A stretch of DNA of 63,191 bases, counting the filler, from Theionarchaea archaeon (GTDB taxonomy: Archaea > Methanobacteriota_B > Thermococci > Methanofastidiosales > SZ-28-30), in assembly GCA_018992565.1 (NCBI GenBank). It is 10 parts of 10 records of this genome, joined end to end, with 100 filler letters (N's around TTAATTAATTAA, not from the genome) between each part and the next. Parts side by side here need not be neighbours in the genome. Positions count along the whole stretch, not along the records: positions 38,029 to 51,407 come from JACVGW010000073.1; 9 more parts are not named here. One strand, given 5' to 3'. The stretch's first letter is position 1. The number at the start of each line of letters is the position of its first letter. This document shows, piece by piece, positions 102-60,652 of this stretch. The notes beneath the pieces are model-generated. The model was given only the letters and a program-made list of their open reading frames with translations, did not search any database and had not been told where the DNA came from. The position numbers and the translations under genes were made by a program.

Positions 102-1124
102 ATGCAGATTCTCTCTTATCATCCGGAACGGGGAACCATCAGCCTCCAGATAGAATCGCTGGAGGATTTATGGCACCTGGATCACATTTTGGAGGAGGGA
201 GACCTGCTGAAGGCCAGGACATACCGGCGAACTGACCAGCCTTCAGACATGCTGCGGCCACAGAGAGCTGAGAAAAAACCTGTAACCCTCATCATACGTA
301 TTGAGAAGGTAGAGTTCCACCCACATTCTAACTGGTTGAGAGCGACAGGCGTCATTGAAGGAGGGGAAGATGCTGGAAGTTATCATACCATTAACCTTGA
401 AGAAGGTTCCAGGTGTACTATTATCAAGCAATGGAGGCAGTACCACCTGGAGAGGCTGAAAGAAGCAGTCCAACAGAGCAAGACTCCCAGGATCCTGCTG
501 GTGGCCATGGATGATGAGCAGGCAGATTTTGGCGTTGTACGGCAGTATGGAATAGAAGAAGTAGCCACTGTGCACGCACGTATCCCTGGAAAGAGGGAAC
601 CTTCTCAGAGGAAAGCAGCCAAGAATCAGTACTTCAAGGAAATTTCTGCAAAGATTTCAGAATATGACCTTCCCACTATAGTAGCGGGACCTGGATTCAC
701 AAAAGAGGAATTCAGGAAGTTCTTGATGGACACGGGAGGCAAGCAGGTGGAAGTGGAGTCAGTGAGCACCACAGGAAAGACCGGCCTCTATGAGGTGGTG
801 AAACGAGGACTGGTGGAAAAAGTGTATCAAGATTCAAAAACTGCGCGGGATATCCAGCTGATTGAAGAGCTCTTCGCCAAGATTATTACAAATGATGCAG
901 TGTACGGGTTGGAAGATGTTAAGAAGGCAGTTGCCTACAGTGCGTGTCAAGACCTGCTCGTTGTGGACACAGTGCTGCGGACTAACCGGGAGGCTGAACA
1001 TCTGATGGAACAGGCCCGTCAGCGTGGAGGCAAGACCCACATTATCTCGTCTCAGCACGAAGGGGGAGAGAAACTGCTGCACCTGGGAGGCATCGCAGCT
1101 TTCTTACGGTTCAAGATAGAGTAA
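102..1124 (+). CDS. pelA: mRNA surveillance protein pelota (aPelota/Dom34, eRF1 family)
   Basis: 340 aa; ESLEDLWHL N-terminus, YHTINLE, VAGPGFTKEEF, and C-terminal HEGGEKLLHLGGIAAFLRF typical of pelota. Confidence 0.95.
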   Translation: MQILSYHPERGTISLQIESLEDLWHLDHILEEGDLLKARTYRRTDQPSDMLRPQRAEKKPVTLIIRIEKVEFHPHSNWLRATGVIEGGEDAGSYHTINLEEGSRCTIIKQWRQYHLERLKEAVQQSKTPRILLVAMDDEQADFGVVRQYGIEEVATVHARIPGKREPSQRKAAKNQYFKEISAKISEYDLPTIVAGPGFTKEEFRKFLMDTGGKQVEVESVSTTGKTGLYEVVKRGLVEKVYQDSKTARDIQLIEELFAKIITNDAVYGLEDVKKAVAYSACQDLLVVDTVLRTNREAEHLMEQARQRGGKTHIISSQHEGGEKLLHLGGIAAFLRFKIE

Positions 1125-1337
1125 CCTATGGAAAAATGCTGTACATGGCCGTATGGGTCTTCTCTTTTTCTGATTCTTCCCCTTTCTCTTTCTTGTGTAG
1201 TACTTCCGGTTCAGGGTTTGATTCTTCCTTTTGTGACATCCGGTCTCCAACTCCTGCCCAACACTACGATTCTCATCCGTGGTACCTGCTACCTTGTCCA
1301 CAATACTTAAATAATAGGGTTGGTCAAATTTATATAA

Positions 1338-2474
1338 ATGGAAAAAAATGATGATCTCAACCTTACTGAAATGAAACTCCTCGATTACATTGGTAAATGG
1401 CCAGAACTCACCAATAAAGAGCTGGCTCATCTCTTGAATCTGAAAAATTCGCCTTACGTATCCACTCTGAAGAGAATTCTGCACGACAAGGAATACTTCA
1501 TTGGGCCCTATTATCAGACAGATTATGGCAGGATTTTCAGGAATAGGGTGAGAAAAGCAATAGCTATCCTTCTTTTTGAACAATCATACAAATTTATGGT
1601 TTCTTTGCTCAGAAATATTGGCTGCTTCTCCTATATGTATCCCATCGAAGAGCGATTTTTCAAGAGAATCATGATCAGTATATTCGATAGTGATACTGAG
1701 GGTGTTAAGAAATTGTTTGACTTCCTCAAAGAGGAAGGCATAATCTTCCACTATGAATTATATGTTCAGGATCACCAGACATATGTGATCCCACCTGTAT
1801 TTCTCGGAGATTCTGAAGAGGCTTCCTTTGTCCCACCCCTGGAAAACCTCCTGGATGACGTAGATATCCCTGATCTTTCATTTGGTCACTTTGAAGACCT
1901 CCAGTTGTCTGTTCGAGAGCAGGAGCTTATCACCTGCTTCGAACAGGGAAACAATGTTCTCACCGATGTTATGGAACAGGAAAAAGGTCAGGGAAATTTC
2001 TATACATACGCAGAATGGAAGGAAGCCAAGACGCTCCTGACAGAGCGAAAGATACTGCAACCCGTGTACGATATCTTCCCCCTGTCCTACTGGAAGTGCT
2101 CTCATTTCTTTCTTCTGGTGCGTACCCCTGAGTGCTCTGTTACCAAGAGGATACTGCTCAATTTTGGAAAGAACTCCCGGCTGTATAAGAAGATCTTCTT
2201 ATGGACATCATATCAAACAGGGAGAATGTATGGAGTTATCTACTGCATTTCTCACCCCGAGTTTACCATAAAACTGCTGAACCAACTTGACAAGTACGAA
2301 CTCATTGAGGATGAGCAGCTTTTTGTGCTGCGAAAAACCATTTCTCTGTGGGGAGGGCAGAGCATCTCCATGGATCATTACGACCCTGAGCATCAGACTC
2401 TTTGCTTCCCCTATACTGACTACCTGGAAAGAATGGAACGTGTTCTGGAGGAACCTCAATGCCAGATATTGTAA
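1338..2474 (+). CDS. Uncharacterised HTH-containing protein, possibly Lrp/AsnC-like two-repeat regulator; paralog of 52542-53645
   Basis: 378 aa ORF; N-terminal wHTH-like segment (PELTNKELAHLL); shared blocks with the paralog (PDLSxG, RILxNFGKxxRLYK, CIxHP, YDxExQTLxxPY). Confidence 0.55.
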   Translation: MEKNDDLNLTEMKLLDYIGKWPELTNKELAHLLNLKNSPYVSTLKRILHDKEYFIGPYYQTDYGRIFRNRVRKAIAILLFEQSYKFMVSLLRNIGCFSYMYPIEERFFKRIMISIFDSDTEGVKKLFDFLKEEGIIFHYELYVQDHQTYVIPPVFLGDSEEASFVPPLENLLDDVDIPDLSFGHFEDLQLSVREQELITCFEQGNNVLTDVMEQEKGQGNFYTYAEWKEAKTLLTERKILQPVYDIFPLSYWKCSHFFLLVRTPECSVTKRILLNFGKNSRLYKKIFLWTSYQTGRMYGVIYCISHPEFTIKLLNQLDKYELIEDEQLFVLRKTISLWGGQSISMDHYDPEHQTLCFPYTDYLERMERVLEEPQCQIL

Positions 2475-3484
2475 CAAAGCATGGTACCATAAAGACACCT
2501 GCTCTCATCCCGGTGGTGGCAGCCTCCTATGGTATCTGGGACAAATGGATTGCGGGAGATTATACTGCACCATGGAACCTCTCCCAGGGAGTTATTCTGA
2601 GTCTCTATCATATTCTGAAATATCCGTACAGAGAACGTATCTCAAAGGAAGGGGTCCATGCTGTGCTGGGTACAGACAACCCTGTGTATATCGACAGCGG
2701 GGGGTTTCAGTACATGAAGAAAGGAGCAGAACTGGACCCGGTAGAGGTTTTGCGCTACCAGGAACGCATGGGATGTGATATTGGCATCACGTTTGACTTC
2801 CCAATCCTTCCGGATATGGAAGAACAGGAAAAGGAAGCCAGACTGGAACGTTCCATTGCCTCTGCCAACGTCATGCTTAAGGAAAAGAGAACTGACATGT
2901 GCCTGTATGGTGCCATCCATGGCTCGAATCCTCGAGAAATAACAGACTACATGCACCAACTGGACTCTGGATTCTCGGGATATGGCATTGGTTCTCTAGT
3001 CCCCAGAAAGAACCAGCTGACTCATCTGGTGGACATGATATACCAGGTACGCCAGCAAACTGAGAAGCCTGTGCACTGCTTTGGAATAACAGGGTTCCCA
3101 GCTCTGTTTGCTCTGTCCTACCTGGGAGTGGATACCTTTGACTCCTGGGCGTATGTGGTGGCTGCAGCATTCAAGGAGTTTGTGCATCCTGTAACCCTCT
3201 CACGAGTGAAGAATATCAAGCATGTAGATAGGCTTCCCCCCTGTGAGTGTGCCATCTGCCAGCAGTATTCACACGAGGACATGATCAGAGCTGACAGCGA
3301 TTCGGAAATCATCCTGGCACTGCACAACCTCAATATCTTTCTTTATGAAATGGAACAGATCCGAGAATCCTCTCGCGAGAACAACCTTGAGAGTTATATT
3401 GAAAAGAGGTCTCAGACTACTAATAAACGGGTGAGGCAAGCATTCAAAATTGCCCGGGAGAAGTCGTCACAACCCTCTTTCTAA
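2459..3484 (+). CDS. tRNA-guanine transglycosylase-family protein, catalytic domain only
   Basis: TKHGTIKTPA, DSGGFQ, HCFG, GVDTFDS and Zn site CECAIC...LHN; 341 aa, no C-terminal PUA region; overlaps upstream ORF by 16 nt. Confidence 0.85.
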   Translation: MPDIVTKHGTIKTPALIPVVAASYGIWDKWIAGDYTAPWNLSQGVILSLYHILKYPYRERISKEGVHAVLGTDNPVYIDSGGFQYMKKGAELDPVEVLRYQERMGCDIGITFDFPILPDMEEQEKEARLERSIASANVMLKEKRTDMCLYGAIHGSNPREITDYMHQLDSGFSGYGIGSLVPRKNQLTHLVDMIYQVRQQTEKPVHCFGITGFPALFALSYLGVDTFDSWAYVVAAAFKEFVHPVTLSRVKNIKHVDRLPPCECAICQQYSHEDMIRADSDSEIILALHNLNIFLYEMEQIRESSRENNLESYIEKRSQTTNKRVRQAFKIAREKSSQPSF

Positions 3485-3604
3485 TGTATCTGTTAAAAGC
3501 GATTCTCACTGATTGATGCTATTAATCCTTACTACAGAATTTTGATAACATTCGGTAACTTTGAAACCGAAACATTTATATACCATAAGGGGAGGAGGGA
3601 TACA

Positions 3605-3690
3605 AGGAGTGAAGTAGAGAGAAGGACTGGTCCCGAAGGGAGGTGAAAGATCGGTCACATTCCGTGACCTTTCTTTTTTTTCTTTGTTGA
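3605..3690 (+). ncRNA. Candidate small RNA (promoter, short non-coding unit, hairpin, U-tract)
   Basis: GAAACATTTATATA promoter at 3569-3582; GGTCAC-ATTCC-GTGACC hairpin followed by a T run; no usable start codon. Ends estimated. Confidence 0.35.
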
Positions 3691-3769
3691 TGTTCTTTTC
3701 AAGATCAGGAAGGTAGCGAGTCAAGGCCTAGGACGATAACTCTTTATAGTCTGTCAACGTTCTGCTATC

Positions 3770-4600
3770 ATGAAAGCATATGTGGAAATGGTCAGGCCTT
3801 CTAACTCCATTATGGCTGGATTTGCTGTCTTTCTTTCAGGAATGATTGCTGCGGGAAGACAGATACCTCCATTGGACGTTTTTCTGGCCGTTCTGGGCAC
3901 TATTGCTGCTTCATCTGGTGGAATGGTGATGAACGACTATTTTGACTATGATATTGACAGCATCAACAGACCTCAGAGACCCTTACCCAGGGGAGCAATC
4001 TCCAGGAAGAATGCCCTCATCTTTGCCGTCCTTCTGTTCATGTTGGCCTACCTTCTCATTGCTTTCACTAATTGGCTCTGTATTTTGATTGGATATCCTG
4101 CTATAGCATTAGTTTTCGTATATTCCTGGAAGCTGAAACGGAGGCCTCTCAGCGGGAATTTTGTGGTGGCCTTCCTGACGAGTCTGACATTAGTATATGG
4201 GGGAGCTGCTGCAGGGAAAGTCTTGCTTGTGAGTATGTTGGCAGTCTGCGCGTTTTTTGCCAATTTTTCCCGCGAGATTGCAAAAGACATCGAGGATATA
4301 AAAGGCGATCAGAGCCTGGGATCGAGAACACTTCCTATTCTATGGGGTGTTGAGAGATCAGCACAACTCTCCGCAGTATGCCTGGCACTGGGAATTGTGG
4401 CTACCTTCTTACCGTATTTTGCAGGGATTTTTGGCTGGTTATATCTGGCTTTGGTGGTACCTGTGGATGTCATCATGGTTTATGTTCTGTATCTACTGCT
4501 GAACATGAAGATAGACAGGATAACAGTCATACAAAAACTGGAGAAAGCAGGCATGTACAGTGTCCTTGTGATTTTCTTTATCTCAAAGATGGTTCAGTAG
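3770..4600 (+). CDS. Digeranylgeranylglyceryl-phosphate synthase (UbiA prenyltransferase family)
   Basis: NDYFDYDIDSINRPQRPLPRG and REIAKDIEDIKGD motifs; multiple TM helices. Confidence 0.9.
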   Translation: MKAYVEMVRPSNSIMAGFAVFLSGMIAAGRQIPPLDVFLAVLGTIAASSGGMVMNDYFDYDIDSINRPQRPLPRGAISRKNALIFAVLLFMLAYLLIAFTNWLCILIGYPAIALVFVYSWKLKRRPLSGNFVVAFLTSLTLVYGGAAAGKVLLVSMLAVCAFFANFSREIAKDIEDIKGDQSLGSRTLPILWGVERSAQLSAVCLALGIVATFLPYFAGIFGWLYLALVVPVDVIMVYVLYLLLNMKIDRITVIQKLEKAGMYSVLVIFFISKMVQ

Positions 4601-5007
4601 CCTCTCTGCAGCCTGGATGTCGGAAGAGGAAGTAATACTTCTCAAGAGGAAGACTATCAGTACCACCATGACGACTATCAGTGGAATTTCTATGATATTA
4701 TCACCTTCCTGCAAAGGTGTTTTAGTTTCCCCTATATAAAGATTATGATTATGGTCCGAGACAATCCGGTATTCATGTTCGGCTACTCTATGTGAAATGG
4801 ACAGGACATCCATTGGTAAAGAATGGAAGATGTCTGTATGCCTGTTTCCTGGCGCTTTCATCATGTCCGAGAAAGCAGTAGTCAGGGTAGCACATAGGGG
4901 TTCGTGAAGAAGAACAGTGGTTTGACATCAATGGTTGGTGACGTTCACCTGGAGTTCTATAGATGGGATGGATGGGTCTTGCGTTCTGGTGCGATTTTGA
5001 ATCGTTT

Positions 5008-5814
5008 CTAGTCTGGAGGTTCATCAAGGTCTCTCCCACAATGCGGGCATATCCTTCTTCCAAGAGAGTGTTTCTTCTGCAGTTCTTCAGCGAATCCAGA
5101 AGCCAGTATGCCTGCGGGCAGTGCAAACATCCCAATGCCCAGCAAAGCAATGACAGCTCCAAGGAATTTCCCCACTGGTGTGATGGGGTACACATCACCA
5201 TACCCCACAGTGGTTAATGTGGCAACTCCCCACCACATTGCTGCTGGGATGCTGGAAAAGGCTTCTGGCTGCGCATCATGTTCCACATAGTAGATGGTGC
5301 TCGATGCGAATACGAGCATCAGTGATATGACAAAGAACGTCACGACAATTTCCTCCTTCTTGGCCTTCAAGACATTTCCCAGAGTCAATAATGACTCAGA
5401 GTATCTTCCCATCTTGAACAGCCTGAACAGTCTGAACAATCTGAGAGCTCGCAGGAACCTGGGGTCCATGGGGAATACTACAGGCAGATAAAAGGGCAGT
5501 ATGGCCACCAAGTCAATTAAGGACATGGGCTTTGCCATGAACCGTAATCTGTCAGTAAGTGGATGCGCTCCTTTCTTGCTGGCAGTACACACCCACAATC
5601 GAAGTACGTATTCAACAGTAAATACAATGACAGAGAAAACCTCAAAGGCATAAAAGACACTCTCATACACTGCGAAGATGCTCTCCACCGTCTCCAGGAC
5701 AACTGCCAGCACGTTCAGAAAGATCAATGCCATGATAAATACATCGAAAAGTCTGCTCAAAGGATCGTTTTCTGATGCAACTTCCAGAATCTGGTACAGG
5801 CGGGTCTTTATCAT
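5008..5814 (-). CDS. Voltage-gated potassium channel / ion transporter
   Basis: TTVGYGD selectivity filter; S4 segment RALRLFRLFRLFK; C-terminal CPHCG; ATG start chosen from GGTGA RBS. Confidence 0.92.
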   Translation of the reverse strand: MIKTRLYQILEVASENDPLSRLFDVFIMALIFLNVLAVVLETVESIFAVYESVFYAFEVFSVIVFTVEYVLRLWVCTASKKGAHPLTDRLRFMAKPMSLIDLVAILPFYLPVVFPMDPRFLRALRLFRLFRLFKMGRYSESLLTLGNVLKAKKEEIVVTFFVISLMLVFASSTIYYVEHDAQPEAFSSIPAAMWWGVATLTTVGYGDVYPITPVGKFLGAVIALLGIGMFALPAGILASGFAEELQKKHSLGRRICPHCGRDLDEPPD

Positions 5815-6013: not shown

Positions 6014-6688
6014 GTGGAGAGAGGTGGTCGGATAACACTCAATTGGCTGGATTTTGTAATCGTGATAGGATACATTGGAGTCATTGTATTAGTTGTTGCT
6101 GGGTTGAAAAATCGATTTTTTCCCCGACCTGGCAAAGACCAAGAGCACCCTTTGTCAGTGGAAAAGGAGGATCTTGTGGGAGCCCAGAAGGGCATGCGCA
6201 GGATGGGCCCCCTGATGATCGTACTGGGGGTGCTATCGTATGTTCTGTTATGGTATCTTGGAACGAAACCTCCTATTGAATACGTTCACCTCTTGATTCT
6301 CATGGCAGCTTATATGGTCCTCAGTTCTTTTGACATTTCACCCAAACTGAGATATTACTTTATTTCCCCTCAGGCGGAGACTTTAGAGAAGGGTAAAGAG
6401 TCAAAACTTGATTTGAACATGGGCAGAAGCATATTGTATGTGAATGCAGCAGTCTTATTGGCCTTCTGTATTCTCTACGCCCAGCTGCGATCCGGCCCCT
6501 TCCATGGTATCTGGGGAATAATTGCGTGGGCTGGAACTCTCTTTTTCTCCTATACTCCAGTTCTCCTGGTCAGAGAGGAATACACGGGGAGGGGAGTCCT
6601 CAGAGAGAAGAGAATTTTTGCCTTCAGCATCTTTCTAAGCTGGATTCTTGTGTTCTTCTGGTTAGAGCTTGGATTAAATCTGCCATGA
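6014..6688 (+). CDS. Hypothetical multi-pass membrane protein
   Basis: 224 aa ORF with about 6 hydrophobic segments; start uncertain. Confidence 0.55.
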   Translation: MERGGRITLNWLDFVIVIGYIGVIVLVVAGLKNRFFPRPGKDQEHPLSVEKEDLVGAQKGMRRMGPLMIVLGVLSYVLLWYLGTKPPIEYVHLLILMAAYMVLSSFDISPKLRYYFISPQAETLEKGKESKLDLNMGRSILYVNAAVLLAFCILYAQLRSGPFHGIWGIIAWAGTLFFSYTPVLLVREEYTGRGVLREKRIFAFSIFLSWILVFFWLELGLNLP

Positions 6689-6749
6689 TGATAGATTGAG
6701 CCTGTTGAATATTTTGATGAAAAAAATAATTAAATAAAGAAAAAGTAGA

Positions 6750-8093
6750 CTAATTCCACCTCTTATTCAGGAATTCGGGAATGCCGGAGGAATCTCTGGG
6801 ACCCACGAGGACTTCCCATCCCGATATTTGTTCTAGTTCTCCAGATATTCGGGCTGCCATTCCGGGTATGATGATCTTCTTGTGGGATACCACATCCTTG
6901 ACCTGCGTCTTCTCAATGGCTTCTTTTGCTTTGTAGGCGTCCAGCTGACCACCGGCCACTGAAGCTTCAACACCCAGTCCTTCTGTATCAAAGACCAAAA
7001 GATATGCATTGAGGCCTGAGGATTCAATATCCGAGGCCACGGTATAGTAGGTCAGTGCGAAGTTGGTGGTTGCCAGGAGTGGTGATTCCTTTGTGGGAGT
7101 CCCGAACGTGCGCAATCCAGCATCCACTGACACGGGCCGCCTCGGGTCTGTATAGATATTCTGCCGCAGGGTAATTACCGGAAGAACTGCATACATGTCT
7201 GTAGTATGAAAGATCAAGAGGTCTGCGAACCTATCAATCATGAGAGCAGCTGACATCACTTCTTCCATGGGATTGGTGCATGCAGCAGGTATGCCAATTA
7301 TGGGACAGTTCATGGTGTCATCTTCATTCATTGAGACCCGCCTGATCTCCACGAATTCATTAACGGTGGCTGACAGGTTCTCAGGGTGAATCCCGGGATC
7401 TACTGCAATGTCTTTCAGTCCCATGCTCTGCAGGGCATGTACCACAGATTTAAGCTCAGACAGGTTATTGTCTGCAAAAGCCACCACAGGGCAGTCATAT
7501 TTCATTGCAAGCCCTCCAACCTGTTCCCAGGTGTCCTTGGTGGCCGCGTACAGAAGGGGATTGTCATCACATACACTCAGGGCTGCCTCTAGCGACTCAG
7601 GCAGAAAACTGCATACTATGAGTGCTTTGTCTGTTTTTGCTGCCACCTTCTGGACACATTCTGCAAAGACAGCTGGATCCTGAGATACATTCTTGATAGC
7701 CACTGCCTGGAGTGTCAGTTCCTGACCAATCCGCTCATGGCTGAAATTGGTAACATAGGCAACTCTTTCCAGGAGTTCATCATCTGTCATCCGGTCATCA
7801 ACATCAATGGCAATGGCGGTCTCGTTGAAGTAGGTCAGCTCATGCCGGTACAGGACATCTTCCCCGCCGATTTTCACTGGGGACTTCTTACCAAAGACAA
7901 CCTGGCGCACTGCAGGCGAGGTCATCTTTATCAGAGCCTCAAGATGTGACCCTTTCAGGTACGGGCAGTCTGTGAGCTTGACAGTCCGTTCAATGATCTG
8001 TGAAGCAAAGGCCATGCACGTCTTCTCCCCACATTCTCCACAGTTCGTCTTTGGCAGGTGGCGATAGAGATCCAGGGGACCCAGTCTCTTCAT
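6750..8093 (-). CDS. cdhE: ACDS complex subunit gamma (corrinoid Fe-S protein, large subunit)
   Basis: LPKTNCGECGEKTCMAFA Fe-S motif, TTNFALTYY, VGPRDSSGIP; start reassigned to MKRLGP, overlapping the cdhD stop. Confidence 0.95.
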   Translation of the reverse strand: MKRLGPLDLYRHLPKTNCGECGEKTCMAFASQIIERTVKLTDCPYLKGSHLEALIKMTSPAVRQVVFGKKSPVKIGGEDVLYRHELTYFNETAIAIDVDDRMTDDELLERVAYVTNFSHERIGQELTLQAVAIKNVSQDPAVFAECVQKVAAKTDKALIVCSFLPESLEAALSVCDDNPLLYAATKDTWEQVGGLAMKYDCPVVAFADNNLSELKSVVHALQSMGLKDIAVDPGIHPENLSATVNEFVEIRRVSMNEDDTMNCPIIGIPAACTNPMEEVMSAALMIDRFADLLIFHTTDMYAVLPVITLRQNIYTDPRRPVSVDAGLRTFGTPTKESPLLATTNFALTYYTVASDIESSGLNAYLLVFDTEGLGVEASVAGGQLDAYKAKEAIEKTQVKDVVSHKKIIIPGMAARISGELEQISGWEVLVGPRDSSGIPEFLNKRWN

Positions 8094-14362: not shown

Positions 14363-14462
14363 NNNNNNNNNNNNNNNNNNNNNNNNNNNNNNNNNNNNNN
14401 NNNNNNTTAATTAATTAANNNNNNNNNNNNNNNNNNNNNNNNNNNNNNNNNNNNNNNNNNNN
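14363..14462. other. Artificial contig linker (N44-TTAATTAATTAA-N44); same linker at 17849, 21121, 34716, 37929, 51408, 54546, 57661 and 60553
   Basis: Identical six-frame-stop linker in nine 100-nt gaps; flanking genes are truncated. Confidence 0.97.
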
Positions 14463-17848: not shown

Positions 17849-17948
17849 NNNNNNNNNNNNNNNNNNNNNNNNNNNNNNNNNNNNNNNNNNNNTTAATTAA
17901 TTAANNNNNNNNNNNNNNNNNNNNNNNNNNNNNNNNNNNNNNNNNNNN

Positions 17949-21120: not shown

Positions 21121-21220
21121 NNNNNNNNNNNNNNNNNNNNNNNNNNNNNNNNNNNNNNNNNNNNTTAATTAATTAANNNNNNNNNNNNNNNNNNNNNNNN
21201 NNNNNNNNNNNNNNNNNNNN

Positions 21221-34517: not shown

Positions 34518-34903
34518 TAGAGTTCTTTTCACTAGAGCTTAAAATAACTTTCTCATGCAGTGAAGCATGAAAGCGTAAGATTCAAATAATGAACCTGACT
34601 ACCAGTAGTATGCATTTAGTAACTGCAGACGTCCTCGATGAGTATGGCCTCCCCCCCGATTTTTCTTTTATCATTGCTGACCCGGAGAACACCCGTTACG
34701 TGAGAGACCTGGCGCNNNNNNNNNNNNNNNNNNNNNNNNNNNNNNNNNNNNNNNNNNNNTTAATTAATTAANNNNNNNNNNNNNNNNNNNNNNNNNNNNN
34801 NNNNNNNNNNNNNNNTCCGCATTCACGCATGAGATCCAGGCGTTGCCCCCCTGTAGACCCCATAGGATTTTATGACTCCAATTGAACGAGTACCAGTGAT
34901 ATA

Positions 34904-37928: not shown

Positions 37929-38295
37929 NNNNNNNNNNNNNNNNNNNNNNNNNNNNNNNNNNNNNNNNNNNNTTAATTAATTAANNNNNNNNNNNNNNNN
38001 NNNNNNNNNNNNNNNNNNNNNNNNNNNNTTTCTCAGATTTCTCCTGATCTTTTTCTTCCTTTTCGCTTCCTTTTTCACTGCGTGCCATGTATGGTAGAGG
38101 ATGTTGATGCATATAAAGGTTCTTTTGCGAACTTACGGTTTCCTTCATTTACCAGTTGCTGACAGCAAAAATCGAGGAGGATGAGACACAATCTCCTTCC
38201 TGAACCAATCACATGCTACCTCTACCCTCCCCCTCCTCGACTTTACAAATGAAAACCTTTATAATCTCACTCCAACACTGGTCACCGGTGACTCC

Positions 38296-39591: not shown

Positions 39592-41017
39592 GCAGGCGAA
39601 ATTTTCTGAACCACTGCTGAGAGAGAAATCAGTCTCACAGAGAGTTGGTTACTCACTACCCGAGCCCTTGGGAGAGCCAGTTACTATCCCTCACTCTCTT
39701 GTGAGAAAGGAACTGCCGCTTCCCGAACTCTCTGAGGTGGACGTTGTACGCCACTTTACCAGGCTATCTGAAATGAATTTTGGAGTGGACACAGGTACCT
39801 ATCCTCTGGGGTCCTGCACCATGAAGTACAATCCCAAGATAACAGAAGAACTGTCCACACTCTTTTCAGGGTTCCACCCCCTTCAGGATGAATCTACCAT
39901 CCAGGGGTGCCTGGAAGTCCTGTATAACCTGCAGGAGTATCTCAAATTGATATCAGGAACAGCTGCTGTCACGTTACAGCCTGCAGCAGGAGCAGGAGGC
40001 GAGCTGACGGGTGCCCTCATCATTAAAGCATGCCAGAAAGGACGGACAGAAATGGTGGTCCCCGATTCTGCTCACGGGACAAACCCAGCCTCAGCCCACA
40101 TGGCAGGCTTTGATGTGGTGGAAATTCCCTCAAATGACCAGGGGACAGTGGACCTTGAAGCCTTGAAGAGTGCTGTCTCTGAAAAGACTGCAGGGTTGAT
40201 GCTTACCAACCCCAATACCCTGGGCATCTTTGAGAAGGACATCCTGCAGGTGGCTGATATTGTCCACGACGCAGGGGGACTGCTGTACTACGATGGTGCA
40301 AACCTCAATGCAATTGCCGGTATTTGTCGTCCTGGAGATATGGGATTTGATATTGTCCACTTCAATCTGCACAAGACCTTCTCAACTCCCCACGGAGGTG
40401 GAGGGCCTGGATCTGGCCCGGTAGGAGTGTGTGAAAAGCTCAAGAGCTATCTTCCTGTGCCTTTAATAGGCTTCAACGGGAAAGACTACTCCTTTGACTA
40501 TGATCTCCCCAACACTATAGGAAAGGTTCACGGGTTCTACGGCAATTTCCAGGTGGCAGTCAAGGCCTATATCTATGCTGTCATCATGGGGTCAGATATC
40601 AGGACAGCCTCCCAGATGGCTGTGTTGAACGCCAATTACCTGGCTGAAAACCTCAAGGATCACTATGAAATGCCATACCAGCCCTTGAGAAAGCACGAGA
40701 TAGTCCTGTCCTGCGAAAAGATCAAGAGAGAGACTGACTGCAGAGCGCTTGACATTGCAAAACGGCTGCTGGACTATGGGATACACGCCCCAACTATCTA
40801 CTTCCCTTTGATTGTCCACGAAGCATTGATGATCGAGCCCACAGAATCAGAATCAAAAGAAGACCTGGACACCTTCATCGAGGTCATGATAAAAATCAAG
40901 AATGAGTGCTATACCACTCCAGATATAGTGAAAGAAGCTCCTCACAACACTGCGGTAGGGCGGCTGGATGAGGTAAAAGCTGCACGAAATCCAGTTTTAG
41001 CCTGGAATCAGATCTAG
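39584..41017 (+). CDS. gcvPB: Glycine dehydrogenase subunit 2
   Basis: PLGSCTMKYNP, SAHGTNPASA, NLHKTFSTPHGGGGPG. Confidence 0.96.
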   Translation: MYRQAKFSEPLLREKSVSQRVGYSLPEPLGEPVTIPHSLVRKELPLPELSEVDVVRHFTRLSEMNFGVDTGTYPLGSCTMKYNPKITEELSTLFSGFHPLQDESTIQGCLEVLYNLQEYLKLISGTAAVTLQPAAGAGGELTGALIIKACQKGRTEMVVPDSAHGTNPASAHMAGFDVVEIPSNDQGTVDLEALKSAVSEKTAGLMLTNPNTLGIFEKDILQVADIVHDAGGLLYYDGANLNAIAGICRPGDMGFDIVHFNLHKTFSTPHGGGGPGSGPVGVCEKLKSYLPVPLIGFNGKDYSFDYDLPNTIGKVHGFYGNFQVAVKAYIYAVIMGSDIRTASQMAVLNANYLAENLKDHYEMPYQPLRKHEIVLSCEKIKRETDCRALDIAKRLLDYGIHAPTIYFPLIVHEALMIEPTESESKEDLDTFIEVMIKIKNECYTTPDIVKEAPHNTAVGRLDEVKAARNPVLAWNQI

Positions 41018-41199
41018 AACCCCAGAATATCCACACCTACAAGTCTCAGGACAATCTCAAGGACAACAAGCGCTGCTGCTGCAATGATAATGTAAAGAGG
41101 CTTCAATTTGAACCCTCTGGTATCTTCGTCGAAATAACGAATTAACCCTGCACCAGTGGGGGGGAGTGCACCGCCTTCTGCACGTTTTCTCTTTGGCAT
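41014..41199 (-). CDS. secG: Preprotein translocase subunit Sec61-beta (archaeal SecG)
   Basis: PPTGAGLIRYFDED followed by a single C-terminal TM. Confidence 0.9.
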   Translation of the reverse strand: MPKRKRAEGGALPPTGAGLIRYFDEDTRGFKLKPLYIIIAAAALVVLEIVLRLVGVDILGF

Positions 41200-41359
41200 A
41201 GAAACATGTGCGCCACACGATTTATAAACCTTTTGCATCGTTCCCTTTCTGTTCCTACTGGTAGTGAGTACCACATTGCATCAATTTTCAGCCTATTATT
41301 TATTGTTATTTGTGAGAATAACTTTTTTACCCAAAAATATTTATATCTATTAGAAATCG

Positions 41360-41372
41360 AAACATTTATATA
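41360..41372 (+). promoter_or_regulatory. BRE/TATA promoter of precursor peptide 1
   Basis: AAACATTTATATA, 34 nt before the ATG; identical copy at 41661-41673. Confidence 0.7.
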
Positions 41373-41406
41373 GATGAGACAGATGGGAAGAGAGAGGTGA
41401 GATTCA

Positions 41407-41496
41407 ATGAAATCATTTCAGCCTGAATTCCTGGTAGACAGCGAACAGGCCGTTATTGTCAAGAAATGGCCCATACCTTCAATAATCGTACCGTGA
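41407..41496 (+). CDS. Putative RiPP precursor 1 (MKSFQPEFLVDSEQAVIVKKWPIPSIIVP, 29 aa)
   Basis: GAGGTGA RBS 6 nt upstream, own promoter and terminator, paralog of 41705-41797, upstream of rSAM genes. Confidence 0.8.
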   Translation: MKSFQPEFLVDSEQAVIVKKWPIPSIIVP

Positions 41497-41512
41497 GTTC
41501 TCAGAAAGTGAA

Positions 41513-41545
41513 CAGGGTCGTACCCCTGCTTTCTTTCTTTTTTCC
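41513..41545 (+). terminator. Hairpin plus U-tract after precursor 1
   Basis: CAGGG-TCGTAC-CCCTG followed by CTTTCTTTCTTTTT. Confidence 0.6.
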
Positions 41546-41660
41546 GGGCTGCATATGTTGTCGATCATTATTCGCCCTCTCCGAATTCCTATTCCTAGCC
41601 CTGCTGCAGAGAGGAAAGATGTTCTTTTTACTCATATCTCTGACATTTGTTCAATTTACA

Positions 41661-41673
41661 AAACATTTATATA
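41661..41673 (+). promoter_or_regulatory. BRE/TATA promoter of precursor 2 and the rSAM operon
   Basis: AAACATTTATATA, 31 nt before the ATG. Confidence 0.7.
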
Positions 41674-41704
41674 CTCTCAGGACATACCGCAGTGAGGTGA
41701 GACC

Positions 41705-41797
41705 ATGAAAGATGTGTTTATGCCTGAATTCATGGCACTGAACATGCAGTCTACTACGGCTATGATCAAGCCACTACCTTCGTTGCCTGCATACTAA
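41705..41797 (+). CDS. Putative RiPP precursor 2 (MKDVFMPEFMALNMQSTTAMIKPLPSLPAY, 30 aa)
   Basis: GAGGTGA RBS 4 nt upstream; stop 12 nt before the rSAM start; paralog of precursor 1. Confidence 0.8.
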   Translation: MKDVFMPEFMALNMQSTTAMIKPLPSLPAY

Positions 41798-41809
41798 GGT
41801 GGATTGTAC

Positions 41810-42865
41810 ATGAGCGAAGCTATTGATTCTCAGGGTGTGCACCAGCATGCCCTGAGGTTTTTTGAAGAGAAAGTGACCTTCCTCTTTCATATTACTGACT
41901 GGTGTAACCTCAACTGCCAGCATTGTTTCATCAATGCTCATCATACCCCTGTCCATCAGTTTACTGTGGAAGAGGTTTCATCTATCATTCGGGACATGAA
42001 AAAGTTGAAGACAACCCGAATAGCGTTTTCAGGTGGAGAACCCACGCTGCACCCGGATCTTCCTGGTATTCTGGAGGTAGCAGTTGAGGAAGGATTTGCC
42101 CCTGATTTTGTATCTAATGGAACTCTCATCACGGAAGAACTGGCAGAAAAGGTTCAGAACCTGGTGAGGTGCGTCCTCATCAGTGTGGACGGTCCTGAGG
42201 AATACCATGATTCTTTTCGGGGAATGAGAGGTGCTTTCAAGAAGGCCATGGAAGGTATTAAAGCTCTGAAGAAGATGGATGTTCCTTTTGCCCTTCAATT
42301 TACCGTAACAAAAGAGAGCTTTCCGTACGTGGACTGGATTGCCCAGAAAGCTTCCGATATGGGAGCAGAGAGCCTGAAATTGGAGCCATTGTTTGCAGGG
42401 GGAAGAGCCCGTGAGATTGCATCCTCCTGTCTCAGCGAGAAGGAAATTGATGAACTGGCTGAAATCACCACGAAGCTGTACGGGAAGTACCTTGCCACTA
42501 CCAGTGTTTACATGGGCATCAACAGCAAGAAGGTACTGACAGAACACCCGTGCAATGCCTATGCCTGCTTCGGCTCTAAATGTCACAGGCATGCTGAGAA
42601 TGATCCCCGGGAGATCATCATTCTTCCTGATGGGAATATGGTGCCTGTGGACAGCTGTCTCCATCCTCGATTGTACATGGGGAATGTCAAGGAGACGTCT
42701 TTAATGGACGTGGTGCAGGCGTATTTTGACAGTCCTCAGCAGAATGCATTCCTTGCTCTCTGTAAGAAGGTCTTTGACCAGCAGGTGGTGTCCTACCCCT
42801 ATGAGGCTATCCCCTGGTCTCAAATGCTGGCTGCTGCAAGCTGGGAGGAAGAGTATGCCCAGTGA
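41810..42865 (+). CDS. Radical SAM enzyme with atypical SPASM/twitch-like C-terminus
   Basis: CNLNCQHC, FSGGEP, SVDG...HD..RG; C-terminal C-x4-C-x4-C and ILPDGNMVP, MGNV. Confidence 0.9.
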   Translation: MSEAIDSQGVHQHALRFFEEKVTFLFHITDWCNLNCQHCFINAHHTPVHQFTVEEVSSIIRDMKKLKTTRIAFSGGEPTLHPDLPGILEVAVEEGFAPDFVSNGTLITEELAEKVQNLVRCVLISVDGPEEYHDSFRGMRGAFKKAMEGIKALKKMDVPFALQFTVTKESFPYVDWIAQKASDMGAESLKLEPLFAGGRAREIASSCLSEKEIDELAEITTKLYGKYLATTSVYMGINSKKVLTEHPCNAYACFGSKCHRHAENDPREIIILPDGNMVPVDSCLHPRLYMGNVKETSLMDVVQAYFDSPQQNAFLALCKKVFDQQVVSYPYEAIPWSQMLAAASWEEEYAQ

Positions 42866-44394
42866 GAAGGAGTTCCTGGTGAGTTCTGGCTCTCTCGTCA
42901 TCAAGAAACAGAAGGGAGGGAGCTACCTGGTAAAGGACTTGAAGCAGAGAATTCAGGGGAAAGGGAATGAGGATTTGAAGGAGTTACTTGTCATGTGCGA
43001 TGGTACCAGGACGGAGGATGACGTGGTACGGGAACTGTGCAGGCTCTACAGTGAACCTGAAAAAGAGGTGGGCAAGAAGGCGTCAAAGTCAATTGCCTTT
43101 CTGCGTGATTTACATTTCCTGGGGAGTTCTCATGAGCCGCTTCACACGCCTGTTATCGTCAGGGACAGTGACATGGAGTGGCCTGTTGACGTTGCATACC
43201 TGGAGGTCACCAATGCCTGTAATTTGAAGTGCGTGCACTGCTACAAGGAAGCAGGTCTACCACGTGGTGAGGAACTGGGTACAGAAGACTGGGTCTCTCT
43301 CATTGATGAACTGGCCTCTCTGGGTGTGGTGAGTATTGCTGTTACTGGAGGGGAGCCTCTGCTGNNNNNNNNNNNNNNNNNNNNNNNNNNNNNNNNNNNN
43401 NNNNNNNNNNNNNNNNNNNNNNNNNNNNNNNNNNNNNNNNNNNNNNNNNNNNNNNNNNNNNNNNGGTGAGGAACTGGGTACAGAAGACTGGGTCTCTCTC
43501 ATTGATGAACTGGCCTCTCTGGGTGTGGTGAGTATTGCTGTTACTGGAGGGGAGCCTCTGCTGCGCGAAGATATCTTTGATATTCTGGAATGTATTGTGG
43601 ACAATGTTATTGGATTGAATTTATTCACCAATGGTACCCTCCTGACTGAAGATACTGTTTCACGGCTAAAGGATCTGAACCCTGAAAAAGTCATGGTAAG
43701 TGTTGATGGCATGAAGGAAACTCACCAGAAGATCAGGGGTGAGAATACCTATGACAGGACACTCAAGGGTATTACCCGGCTGATCAACGACGGGATACCA
43801 GTTCGCTCCAACACAGTGGTGCACAGCGAGAATGTAGGAGAGCTTTCTGACATTATCCAGGTGCTGGTGGATTTAGGGGTAAGAGAGATGGTCTTTGACC
43901 AGTTCATGGAAGCAGGGAGAGGCAGAGAACACGGAAATCTCATTCCTGCTCTGGAAATGGGTGAAAAGGTATCACAACAGTGTCGGGCTTTTGAGGAAAA
44001 GACGCCTCAGCGTATAGAGCTTAAATTCACCTCAGAAATGCAGAATACAGAATCATCCTACTCCTTCTGTGGAGTGGGAACATCTATGCTCACGGTGACT
44101 GCATATGGCGATGTGGTACTGTGCCCTGTGCTGAGCAGTCCTGAGCATACTGCTGGAAATCTGAAAGACGAATCACTGGAGTCTTTATGGATGAACAGCC
44201 CGGTCTTTGACCCCTTCAGGCAATGCACGCCGGAGAATATGGTGTGCGGAACCTGTCCACACGTCACGGAATGCAGAGGGGGATGCAAGGCCCGTGTGCT
44301 GCACTATTATAACAAGGTATGCATGCCAGACCCCTGGATGTGTGCCACCCGAGGACAGCCGTGGCCAGAACAGCCAGTACCCCAATCAACATGA
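42855..44394 (+). CDS. RRE(PqqD)-radical SAM-SPASM peptide maturase; about 446 aa after collapsing the artefactual gap
   Basis: N-terminal LVMCDGTRTEDDVVREL PqqD-like domain; CNLKCVHC; TGGEP; SPASM CGVG..GDVVLC..CGTC..ECRGGC; 43266-43364 duplicated at 43465-43563 across 100 N. Confidence 0.88.
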
Positions 44395-45769: not shown

Positions 45770-45869
45770 NNNNNNNNNNNNNNNNNNNNNNNNNNNNNNN
45801 NNNNNNNNNNNNNNNNNNNNNNNNNNNNNNNNNNNNNNNNNNNNNNNNNNNNNNNNNNNNNNNNNNNNN

Positions 45870-51325: not shown

Positions 51326-51507
51326 CCTTCCATGAATGTTTCCCTTTATATAGTTTTCGCTTGAAATCGATGTGAACTTACACATTTTACTTGCTATGCA
51401 TCTTTGGNNNNNNNNNNNNNNNNNNNNNNNNNNNNNNNNNNNNNNNNNNNNTTAATTAATTAANNNNNNNNNNNNNNNNNNNNNNNNNNNNNNNNNNNNN
51501 NNNNNNN

Positions 51508-54373: not shown

Positions 54374-54645
54374 GCCTACTTCCTCCCATATCTCATGAAC
54401 TTCCCTGCCCTTCCCTGTTTGGCAGATGTTCCCGAGGTTCTTGCTTCTCACCACTCTGAGAGTGACTATTTTCTGTTATAGTGCAACTCAGATAGAGAAG
54501 GATGTGATATATGGATTAAGAACATATAAGGTTTTCTATCCAATANNNNNNNNNNNNNNNNNNNNNNNNNNNNNNNNNNNNNNNNNNNNTTAATTAATTA
54601 ANNNNNNNNNNNNNNNNNNNNNNNNNNNNNNNNNNNNNNNNNNNN

Positions 54646-57328: not shown

Positions 57329-57760
57329 ACAAGTGCTTCTCCCCTTGTTCTGGATGAAAGGGATGAGTTCTGCACGACGTATTGAGATACATCTGTATTG
57401 ATTTTGTCATTCTACCTCTTTGGTGCTCTACTGGCATGGTATCACCTCCATCAAGATTGGTTAGTCTATTAGTCGTTCTGAGGGGGATTTAGTAATTAGT
57501 ACTGACTTAGTATGGATAAGTGCTCCTTCCTGCTCAGTAATAAAATATAATTCAGTATATAGACCAAAAAGTTTGTAATTGAGTATAGCAGGGAATGTTT
57601 TTTCCATCCGTTGTTCTCCGTGCTAATTCTAGTTTCGTTTCTCATTATCTATTGGTTTGCNNNNNNNNNNNNNNNNNNNNNNNNNNNNNNNNNNNNNNNN
57701 NNNNTTAATTAATTAANNNNNNNNNNNNNNNNNNNNNNNNNNNNNNNNNNNNNNNNNNNN

Positions 57761-60552: not shown

Positions 60553-60652
60553 NNNNNNNNNNNNNNNNNNNNNNNNNNNNNNNNNNNNNNNNNNNNTTAA
60601 TTAATTAANNNNNNNNNNNNNNNNNNNNNNNNNNNNNNNNNNNNNNNNNNNN

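Follow-up and report, generated by a model that had tools for sequence, protein, structure and literature searches.

The stretch of DNA analysed here (the window) comprises 63,191 nucleotides (nt), filler included, of a Theionarchaea archaeon genome (assembly GCA_018992565.1) and contains, on its plus strand, a compact cassette of four genes that is very probably a genuine radical S-adenosylmethionine (SAM)-modified peptide system of the RiPP type (ribosomally synthesised and post-translationally modified peptides). Two short open reading frames (ORFs), here called precursors A and B, are followed directly by two radical SAM (rSAM) genes, rSAM1 and rSAM2. The second enzyme carries a RiPP recognition element (RRE) at its N-terminus, and the two peptides are the likely substrates of their enzyme neighbours.

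Two unannotated putative precursor genes

The preliminary description of this DNA had pointed to two short ORFs at 41407-41496 and 41705-41797, and both are present on the plus strand, encoding peptides of 29 (precursor A) and 30 (precursor B) amino acids. Each has a leader motif, F-x-P-E-F, and a Pro-rich C-terminal half, of the W-P-I-P-S-I-I-V-P type at the end of the core in A and of the P-L-P-S-L-P-A-Y type in B. The claimed ungapped match of the last 26 residues (F-x-P-E-F, five residues, Q, seven residues, P-[IL]-P-S-[IL], three residues, stop) is exact, with a pairwise BLASTP E-value of 3e-5. The elements said to precede each ORF were also located: a Shine-Dalgarno-like GAGGTGA 4-6 nt 5' of the ATG (41394-41400 (+) for A, invariant in a three-genome DNA alignment; 41694-41700 (+) for B), and an identical B recognition element (BRE)/TATA-like box, the 13-mer AAACATTTATATA (41360-41372 (+) for A; 41661-41673 (+) for B). 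With 13 exact copies in the 2.8-Mb genome, this box is taken to be the organism's common strong promoter consensus and not a private signal of the cassette.

We compared the window genome (G000) with two congeners among the reference genomes (G001 and G002), in each of which the cassette is arranged as in the window, the order of the two peptides included. The Shine-Dalgarno-like sites, the TATA boxes and both ORFs are conserved in an alignment of the three DNA sequences, while the spacer between the ORFs is scrambled in G002. A T-rich stretch after precursor A (41530-41546 (+), with a T run at 41538-41543) is kept in G001 and is possibly an archaeal terminator. Differences between orthologous ORFs fall chiefly on third codon positions, and the precursor ORFs are under purifying selection. 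Nonsynonymous differences per site (pN) lie far below synonymous ones (pS) in five of six comparisons: pN/pS is 0.09/0.85 for precursor A between G000 and G001; 0.20/0.83 (G000-G002) and 0.24/0.86 (G001-G002) for precursor B; and 0.24/0.51, 0.24/0.59 and 0.14/0.31 in the other three ortholog pairs. Frame, start and stop are kept across the relatives, even in those whose enzymes are only 45-48% identical, with an unalignable spacer around them. When a family profile was run against every stop-to-stop segment of 15 or more amino acids in the whole window genome (103,389 in all), only precursors B (E = 4e-15) and A (E = 3.5e-13) were matched, the next best segment having an E-value of 3.6; neither this profile scan nor a strict combined motif scan found further family peptides in the genome. 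Sequence comparison thus confirms both unannotated ORFs as real, conserved genes.

An alignment of 17 family peptides suggests a layout with an N-terminal leader of ~14 residues and a C-terminal Pro-rich core around an invariant Ser. The start Met, the Pro of F-x-P-E-F, this Ser and one downstream Pro, placed directly after Ser-[I/L] or two residues on, are invariant. Most of the peptides also begin with M-K and have an aromatic residue at the second position N-terminal to the leader Pro, a Gln in mid-peptide and, relative to the Ser, a Lys six residues upstream and a preceding P-x-P; the tail after the Ser is 3 to ~19 residues long. A TATA-type box lies 37-42 nt 5' of the ATG in 13 of the 17 peptide genes, and a Shine-Dalgarno-like site is found at -9 to -13 in 14. 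Cys is absent from the window peptides and sporadic in their relatives, with no conserved Cys column in the 17 sequences. Core Trp is limited to A-type peptides and terminal Tyr to some B-type peptides; no core aromatic column is conserved, in line with the earlier remark that the W and Y of the window pair do not align. The conserved chemistry therefore cannot rest on a Cys or an aromatic partner. Thioether formation of the sactipeptide or ranthipeptide kind, which the preliminary description had excluded for the Cys-free window peptides, is ruled out as the conserved reaction across the family, given that the core has no conserved Cys donors. The streptide and cyclophane (triceptide) reactions are likewise ruled out as the conserved reaction, there being no conserved Trp, Tyr, Phe or His in the core. 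The stretch around the invariant Ser is, by inference, the foremost candidate for modification.

G002 has two further A-type precursor copies (L052:1495-1617 (-) and L046:247-390 (-)), both remote from any rSAM gene, which fit a multi-copy precursor family. One is found 85 nt upstream of an M28-family peptidase gene, the other ~230 nt downstream of a glutamine cyclotransferase gene (PF05096, E = 1e-98), each on the same strand as its neighbour. Together with the mid-peptide Gln, these two cases from one genome suggest trimming of the leader by an M28 peptidase to expose the Gln, followed by pyroglutamate capping. PF05096 occurs in only two of the 41 related genomes, G000 and G002. The profile scan found no family peptide beside the glutamine cyclotransferase gene of G000, so the link to the cyclase in G002 is not general.

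Two radical SAM enzymes

The radical SAM gene and the overlapping RRE-radical SAM-SPASM gene that had been proposed directly downstream of the peptides were both seen and are supported by Pfam. rSAM1 (41810-42865 (+), 351 amino acids) begins 13 nt after the stop codon of precursor B, and rSAM2 (42852-44394 (+)) begins inside rSAM1. This 14-nt overlap suggests coupled synthesis of the two enzymes, which perhaps form a complex. The rSAM2 gene is interrupted by an assembly gap of 100 N (43365-43464, unstranded) bordered by a perfect 99-nt repeat (43266-43364 is identical to 43465-43563). An intact 446-residue window rSAM2 is present in the protein collection (P0041; one residue different), and contigs of two public sequencing runs (X9 and X20) join 43364 directly to the letters at 43564 onward. 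The N run is therefore a non-biological assembly artefact, and removal of 43365-43563 restores a protein of 446 amino acids.

rSAM1 matches the Pfam Radical_SAM family (E = 1.2e-22), and its SPASM match, at 17.8 bits, is below the cut-off of 21.5. Seven Cys residues are invariant in 23 homologs: C32, C36 and C39, which form the CX3CX2C motif, and C248, C253, C258 and C318. The four extra Cys are enough for one auxiliary cluster, which makes the C-terminus twitch-like and not a full SPASM domain; rSAM1 has no RRE. Its AlphaFold2 model has a predicted local distance difference test score (pLDDT) of 91.5, and the closest folds are those of SkfB, SuiB and anSME. In NCBIfam, rSAM1 scores best against models of three tetrapyrrole enzymes (AhbD, AhbC and NirJ), in each case far under the cut-off. 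At every locus with upstream DNA, rSAM1 stands directly 3' of a family peptide.

rSAM2 matches both Radical_SAM and SPASM above the cut-offs (SPASM, 37.7 bits against 21.5). Invariant in 35 homologs are the CX3CX2C residues C122, C126 and C129 and the seven-Cys SPASM set C339, C357, C398, C401, C407, C411 and C430. An RRE with a winged-helix layout is assigned to the N-terminal 105 residues on the combined strength of family profiles and the structural model. Of the 35 family members, 24 match PF05402 (PqqD) at E <= 0.01 (best, 2.5e-7), and the AlphaFold2 model (pLDDT 89) has strands at 14-18, 24-28 and 33-37 and helices at 39-47, 54-64 and 69-85. The model superimposes onto SkfB with a VIA Z score of 31.9 and a root-mean-square deviation of 4.6 (369 residues aligned, model 12-423), and onto SuiB with a Z score of 29.2 and a deviation of 4.4 (389 residues aligned, model 8-439). 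Both superpositions span the RRE, from residue 8-12 on. The PqqD-like RRE claimed at the N-terminus is thus upheld by the family, the predicted fold and the superpositions, the window protein itself being a weak match. Sequence profiles against solved structures rank SkfB, PqqE, CteB and SuiB at the top, and the nearest solved structures overall are the peptide maturases SkfB, SuiB, CteB, PqqE and TigE. No NCBIfam model reaches its cut-off for rSAM2: MftC scores 134.6 bits (cut-off 265), StsB 132.2 (625) and PqqE 122.1 (381.35). In Pfam and NCBIfam there is no model for the peptides and none that claims either enzyme at the family level, in keeping with the earlier statement that the precursor family was not recognised.

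Predicted binding of the leader by the RRE

The co-fold modelled full-length rSAM2 and peptide B, from alignments of 35 and 17 sequences respectively, together with SAM and three 4Fe-4S clusters. Its three runs scored 0.70, 0.69 and 0.68, and the three controls 0.00, 0.01 and 0.00; at least 69% of the contacts are common to the runs, and the partner has a pLDDT of at least 49. In the confident interface, RRE residues 26, 33-38, 40-41, 43-44 and 61-86 contact residues 1-14 of peptide B, with the closest contacts made by peptide residues 5-11, which contain the F-x-P-E-F motif. One of the RRE contact residues, N38, is invariant in the 35 homologs. The pose corresponds to the canonical RRE mode, in which the leader is added as a strand against the last RRE strand and packs on the third helix. 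The co-fold therefore supports the proposal that F-x-P-E-F is the RRE-binding leader motif (0.69 against 0.01 for the best control), and the model predicts that this leader is bound by the RRE of rSAM2.

Distribution of the cassette

A search with rSAM1 of a collection of 5.8 billion proteins returned 36 clusters of homologs at 47-100% identity, the next matches being at 33-35%; the named homologs are labelled only as radical SAM proteins of Theionarchaea or of a Methanobacteriota archaeon. More distant relatives of rSAM2 were found at 27-43% identity (P0067-P0088). Scans for rSAM1 loci recovered three true ones from species-representative genomes and 13 of the family from metagenome contigs. 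Two further candidates were set aside as outside the family: an unrelated Clostridium rSAM protein (L031, 31% identity) and a metagenomic match (L045, 32% identity) that has no rSAM2 match.

A lack of conserved upstream peptides beside orthologous rSAM pairs had been named beforehand as an outcome that would refute the proposal; the opposite was observed. One or two family peptides lie upstream of rSAM1, on the same strand, in 15 of 15 loci with upstream DNA (the window, three genome loci and 11 metagenome loci, some of them near-duplicates); L039 and L044 begin within rSAM1 and were left out of this count. A profile seeded from the two window peptides alone found peptides at 12 of the 14 other loci at E <= 0.0063 (997 small ORFs; best, 1e-18). 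The peptides of L042 and L043, whose enzymes are 45% identical, had an E-value of 0.17, and that of L040 was recognised solely by position and motif. rSAM2 follows rSAM1 in 14 of the 16 loci with downstream DNA. The genes on either side vary from locus to locus (CoA ligase, BcrAD/HGD-D, RNase HII, TPR, NFACT, thioredoxin, arginase, DUF166, alpha/beta hydrolase and ABC ATPase), which identifies the peptide or peptides, rSAM1 and rSAM2 as the conserved unit.

By sequence search, the peptide family is rare and narrow. The peptide profile matched three of 34 genomes of the order, all of one genus, and the rSAM1 profile three of 133 genomes of the phylum. In a representative library of 1.84 billion proteins the peptide profile matched 14 proteins at E <= 1e-3, 12 of which belong to the family, either as peptides of 30-47 amino acids or as longer, miscalled ORFs that end in the peptide. 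The other two were rejected: P0170 is a repeat protein by sequence and no family peptide, and P0160 (1083 amino acids, 18 matched stretches) was judged not to belong from the match table. Among the reference genomes the system is confined to one Theionarchaea genus, with a few distant relatives in metagenomes. Distant cassettes (L030, L040 and L042/L043), one of which comes from a Methanobacteriota archaeon, have enzymes at 38-48% identity and show that the system exists beyond the genus. Their peptides have no M-K start, carry Tyr/Phe-x-Pro and are not preceded by a Shine-Dalgarno-like site; a TATA-like box lies further upstream or was not matched.

Two of the metagenome loci show peculiarities of their own. 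In L034 the stretches with family peptides are 2738-4017 and 6014-7016; the second of these peptides follows after 2 kb, with a MatE-family efflux gene ~470 nt downstream of it. The same contig encodes two paralogous 221-residue proteins, at 4071-4733 (-) and 5054-5716 (-), with long His-Pro/Lys-Pro-Lys repeat linkers and a conserved C-terminal domain; a Pfam scan of the protein at 4071-4733 gave no match. The leader motif of the L034 and L035 peptides ends in Leu instead of Phe. At L038 a divergent rSAM/SPASM gene, the third of the locus, lies on the other strand (880-2187 (-)), and the family peptide there (2686-2811 (+)) has lost P-x-P-S and gained a Cys-containing tail. From its sequence, L038 may represent a branch of the family that is switching to thioether chemistry.

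The genus as a whole is rich in enzymes of this kind. The rSAM1 search gave 65 radical SAM/SPASM-like matches in the 2.8-Mb window genome and 42-43 in the two congeners, against two to nine in each of the other 38 relatives, which belong to other genera of the order. Many of the matches in the window genome are paired or tripled on one contig (for example, C110, C119, C13 and C30). There has been a genus-level expansion of radical SAM/SPASM-like enzymes.

Genomic context in the window

Upstream, the cassette is bordered by a Sec61-beta gene on the minus strand, preceded by genes for glycine-cleavage P subunits; downstream the border is a CoA-ligase-like gene, also on the minus strand. The Sec61-beta ORF (41014-41274 (-), 86 amino acids; PF03911, E = 7e-13) and the glycine-cleavage P-subunit gene, which lie on opposite strands, overlap by 4 nt at the end of the latter.

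The window is composed of many short contigs. Nine of its gaps have the form of 44 N, 12 bases and 44 N (14363-14462, 17849-17948, 21121-21220, 34716-34815, 37929-38028, 51408-51507, 54546-54645, 57661-57760 and 60553-60652), and plain gaps of 100 N are found at 43365-43464 and 45770-45869. The latter interrupts the CoA-ligase-like gene and may be another duplicated overlap, as confirmed only for the gap in rSAM2.

Alternative explanations

The short ORFs could be read as frames open by chance in non-coding DNA that is conserved, for example, as a promoter or regulatory region; they are indeed very short and missing from the automatic annotation. The dominance of third-position changes, the low pN relative to pS in five of six comparisons and the conservation of frame, start and stop beside an unalignable spacer speak against this, and twelve family clusters have independently been called as proteins in public data. 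The conservation pattern already refutes the chance-frame explanation, to which we attach next to no probability. If they are real genes, the ORFs might still encode small proteins, or act as regulatory upstream ORFs, without serving the enzymes as substrates; the enzymes would then act on another peptide or protein or on a small molecule. The resemblance of the rSAM1 core to the tetrapyrrole-modifying AhbC, AhbD and NirJ in sequence, and the orphan peptide copies away from rSAM genes, would suit that explanation. However, the order of peptide and then rSAM1 on the same strand is kept in all 15 loci while the other neighbours change, and the role of an RRE is to bind a peptide leader; to our knowledge domains of the PqqD/RRE family have no other. 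The predicted co-fold is, moreover, specific to the conserved leader motif (controls, 0.00-0.01), and an ORF with its own promoter and Shine-Dalgarno site is ill-suited to act as an attenuator. We consider it very improbable that the peptides are not substrates.

A closer competitor, though still an improbable one, is that the peptide serves as the scaffold of an intracellular redox cofactor, following the logic of pyrroloquinoline quinone (PQQ) or mycofactocin. MftC is the best NCBIfam match of rSAM2, with PqqE close behind (134.6 and 122 bits), and the PqqE structure is one of the nearest among those solved. The cassette has no conserved protease or exporter, and in the window and in G001 it lies amid housekeeping genes (glycine-cleavage P subunits, Sec61-beta and an acyl-CoA synthetase-like gene). 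Yet the two scores are far under the cut-offs of 265 and 381 bits, and the ends that define MftA and PqqA are missing: the C-termini after the Ser vary in both length and sequence. The other features of the family are also not those of a cofactor pathway. There are several divergent paralogs per genome, orphan copies included; the distribution is narrow, with three of 133 genomes of the phylum, in one genus; and the neighbourhoods change, with no conserved partner oxidoreductase. Given the paralogs, the narrow range and the variable neighbours, a specialised metabolite is a better fit than a cofactor.

Several of our own observations weigh against the interpretation as a modified-peptide system. 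The window rSAM2 on its own matches PqqD only with E = 0.0043 and 17.8 bits, under the cut-off of 23.4, and the pN/pS values derive from 21-30 codons per comparison. The likeness of rSAM1 to AhbD, AhbC and NirJ appears to be generic for SPASM/twitch enzymes, and its sequence carries no peptide-specific signal. The pass mark of the co-fold is reached by 116 of 157 solved complexes and two of 215 mismatched pairs, but these counts are only a rough guide here because the custom alignments and the riding ligands are outside the calibration. As complexes of RREs with leaders have already been solved, the pass may also partly reflect likeness to them. At two loci (L034 and L035) rSAM1 is accompanied by a peptide, and no rSAM2 gene lies within 2.7-3 kb; recognition must therefore have other means besides the RRE, part of the system can do without the RRE enzyme, and rSAM1 can work in its absence. 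Finally, just as the preliminary description had noted no protease or exporter in the cluster, none was conserved with the cassette among the flanking genes of the loci compared. Even with these points counted, we hold an rSAM-modified peptide system to be the most probable reading of the four genes.

Proposed mechanism and chemistry

For this peptide system we propose the following scheme. Each precursor would be transcribed from its own strong archaeal promoter; the transcript of precursor A may end at the T run, and that of precursor B would read on into rSAM1 and rSAM2. The RRE of rSAM2 would grip the leader, and the Pro-rich core would be threaded into the rSAM/SPASM barrel. Reductive cleavage of SAM would then yield a 5'-deoxyadenosyl radical that abstracts a hydrogen within P-x-P-S-[I/L], with the invariant Ser or a residue beside it as the most likely target, and the SPASM clusters would take up the electron. 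rSAM1 may install a second modification, either by recognising the core directly or by recognising the peptide while rSAM2 holds it. The order and the nature of the two reactions are conjectural.

Any ranking of the possible chemistries is weak, and none of them rises above a tentative candidate. The one that we would name first, by analogy, is an oxidation or crosslink from the C-beta or C-alpha of the Ser, of the AtsB-like or TqqB-like type. Epimerisation of the adjacent Ile/Leu or of other core residues by one of the enzymes seems rather less likely, on a par with the chance that the reaction is something else entirely, and a C-C link involving Pro or aliphatic carbons is the least likely of these. 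It is possible, although we would not bet on it, that the cassette represents a new RiPP class and the first rSAM-made family of peptide natural products from Archaea, with a Ser-centred, Cys-free, aromatic-independent, Pro-rich core. Candidate reactions for such a class are formation of a Ser C-beta aldehyde followed by cyclisation (for example, onto the Lys six residues upstream), an aliphatic ether, and a C-C link between Ser and Pro; we know of no rSAM-RiPP precedent for these reactions on this motif.

New peptide chemistry comes chiefly from radical SAM/SPASM enzymes, and the characterised cases are nearly all bacterial and depend in the main on Cys or aromatic side chains. That genome mining turns up a new rSAM-RiPP family is, in itself, no longer a surprise. 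Sharply delimited, with two peptides of about 30 amino acids, two enzymes, a clear leader motif, a modelled RRE contact and one invariant core residue, the present cassette is a practical test case for C-H functionalisation on Ser, Pro or aliphatic residues, and for how an rSAM partner without an RRE finds its substrate. It also adds to the signs that this Theionarchaea genus is unusually rich in rSAM systems.

Comparison with known systems

The systems closest in architecture are those of SkfB (6efn), SuiB (5v1q/5v1s/5v1t), CteB (5wgg/5why) and TigE (8vpo). Like rSAM2, these enzymes combine an RRE, a barrel with the CX3CX2C motif and a C-terminal SPASM domain with the Cys set C-x2-C-x5-C-x3-C, and in these systems, too, a short precursor gene lies directly upstream. 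Profile E-values for rSAM2 are 3e-38 (SkfB), 2e-35 (CteB) and 3e-29 (SuiB). Sequence identity to rSAM2 is only 15-23%, however, and the residues modified elsewhere, Cys in SkfA and CteA, Lys/Trp in SuiA and Val repeats in TigB, are not conserved in the core of the present peptides. A second rSAM enzyme without an RRE is an obligatory neighbour here, unlike in any of those systems.

MftC (TIGR03962) and PqqE (TIGR02109) are the top curated families for rSAM2, and their systems resemble the cassette in having Cys-free peptides and minimal gene sets without an exporter; MftC and PqqE act through C-C bond formation. The rSAM2 scores are about half or less of the respective cut-offs, and the precursor termini are unrelated to those of the present peptides. 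The RRE is a separate protein in mycofactocin (MftB) and PQQ (PqqD) biosynthesis, whereas in rSAM2 it is fused to the enzyme. No homologs of MftD/E/F or PqqB/C were found among the ORFs at 38-48 kb of the window or the scanned flanking proteins of the related loci. We therefore reject membership in the mycofactocin system (134.6 against 265 bits) and in the PQQ system (122.1 against 381.35 bits, with no PqqB/C-like neighbours).

Both enzymes also superimpose well onto anSME (4k36-4k39; TIGR03942), with Foldseek E-values of 1e-15 and 2e-13. anSME and AtsB target the motif (C/S)-x-(P/A)-x-R in sulfatases. Many family peptides have a Ser-x-Pro that resembles this motif, but its Arg is absent, and the putative substrate here is a 30-residue peptide with a leader for an RRE and not a folded sulfatase. 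With TIGR03942 scores of 69.8 (rSAM1) and 68.7 (rSAM2) bits against a cut-off of 349.45, and with the Arg missing, membership in anSME/AtsB is rejected. AtsB/anSME are the only well-studied Ser-targeting rSAM/SPASM enzymes; according to a published account (PMC10114670), they abstract the C-beta hydrogen in converting Ser to formylglycine. The same account describes TqqB, an rSAM/SPASM enzyme that links a Thr hydroxyl to a neighbouring C-alpha by a C-O bond in a Cys-free peptide (PMC10114670). TqqB and its rotapeptide offer one precedent for Ser-centred core chemistry; the core motif and the streptococcal quorum-sensing context are unrelated, and no TqqB model is among the NCBIfam matches of our enzymes. 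Among the fold matches the epimerase EpeE comes only in the middle (Foldseek ranks 34-50; VIA Z 19.4-19.8 for rSAM2).

The nearest archaeal counterpart by domain composition is CrpC of methanogens. The published account of 2026 (PMC13692751) describes it as an RRE-rSAM-SPASM enzyme with a modelled canonical RRE-leader contact that forms thioethers in a Cys-rich protein. In the literature searched, as represented by partial texts, CrpC was the only characterised archaeal rSAM-SPASM enzyme acting on a ribosomal product. An archaeal RiPP survey of 2024 (bioRxiv 10.1101/2024.10.07.616454) reports that rSAM clusters are predicted widely in archaea and that attempts to activate them failed. No description of the present family was found in literature on Theionarchaea radical SAM enzymes, archaeal RiPPs and rSAM-Ser/formylglycine chemistry, supplements excepted, which may list the locus under an automatic label. 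The cassette differs from the CrpC system in its putative substrates, 30-residue Cys-free peptides in place of a Cys-rich protein, and in its second rSAM enzyme. The architecture is thus of a known kind; new are the precursor family, the obligatory pairing with an RRE-less, twitch-type rSAM enzyme and the Cys-free, aromatic-independent core of Ser and Pro.

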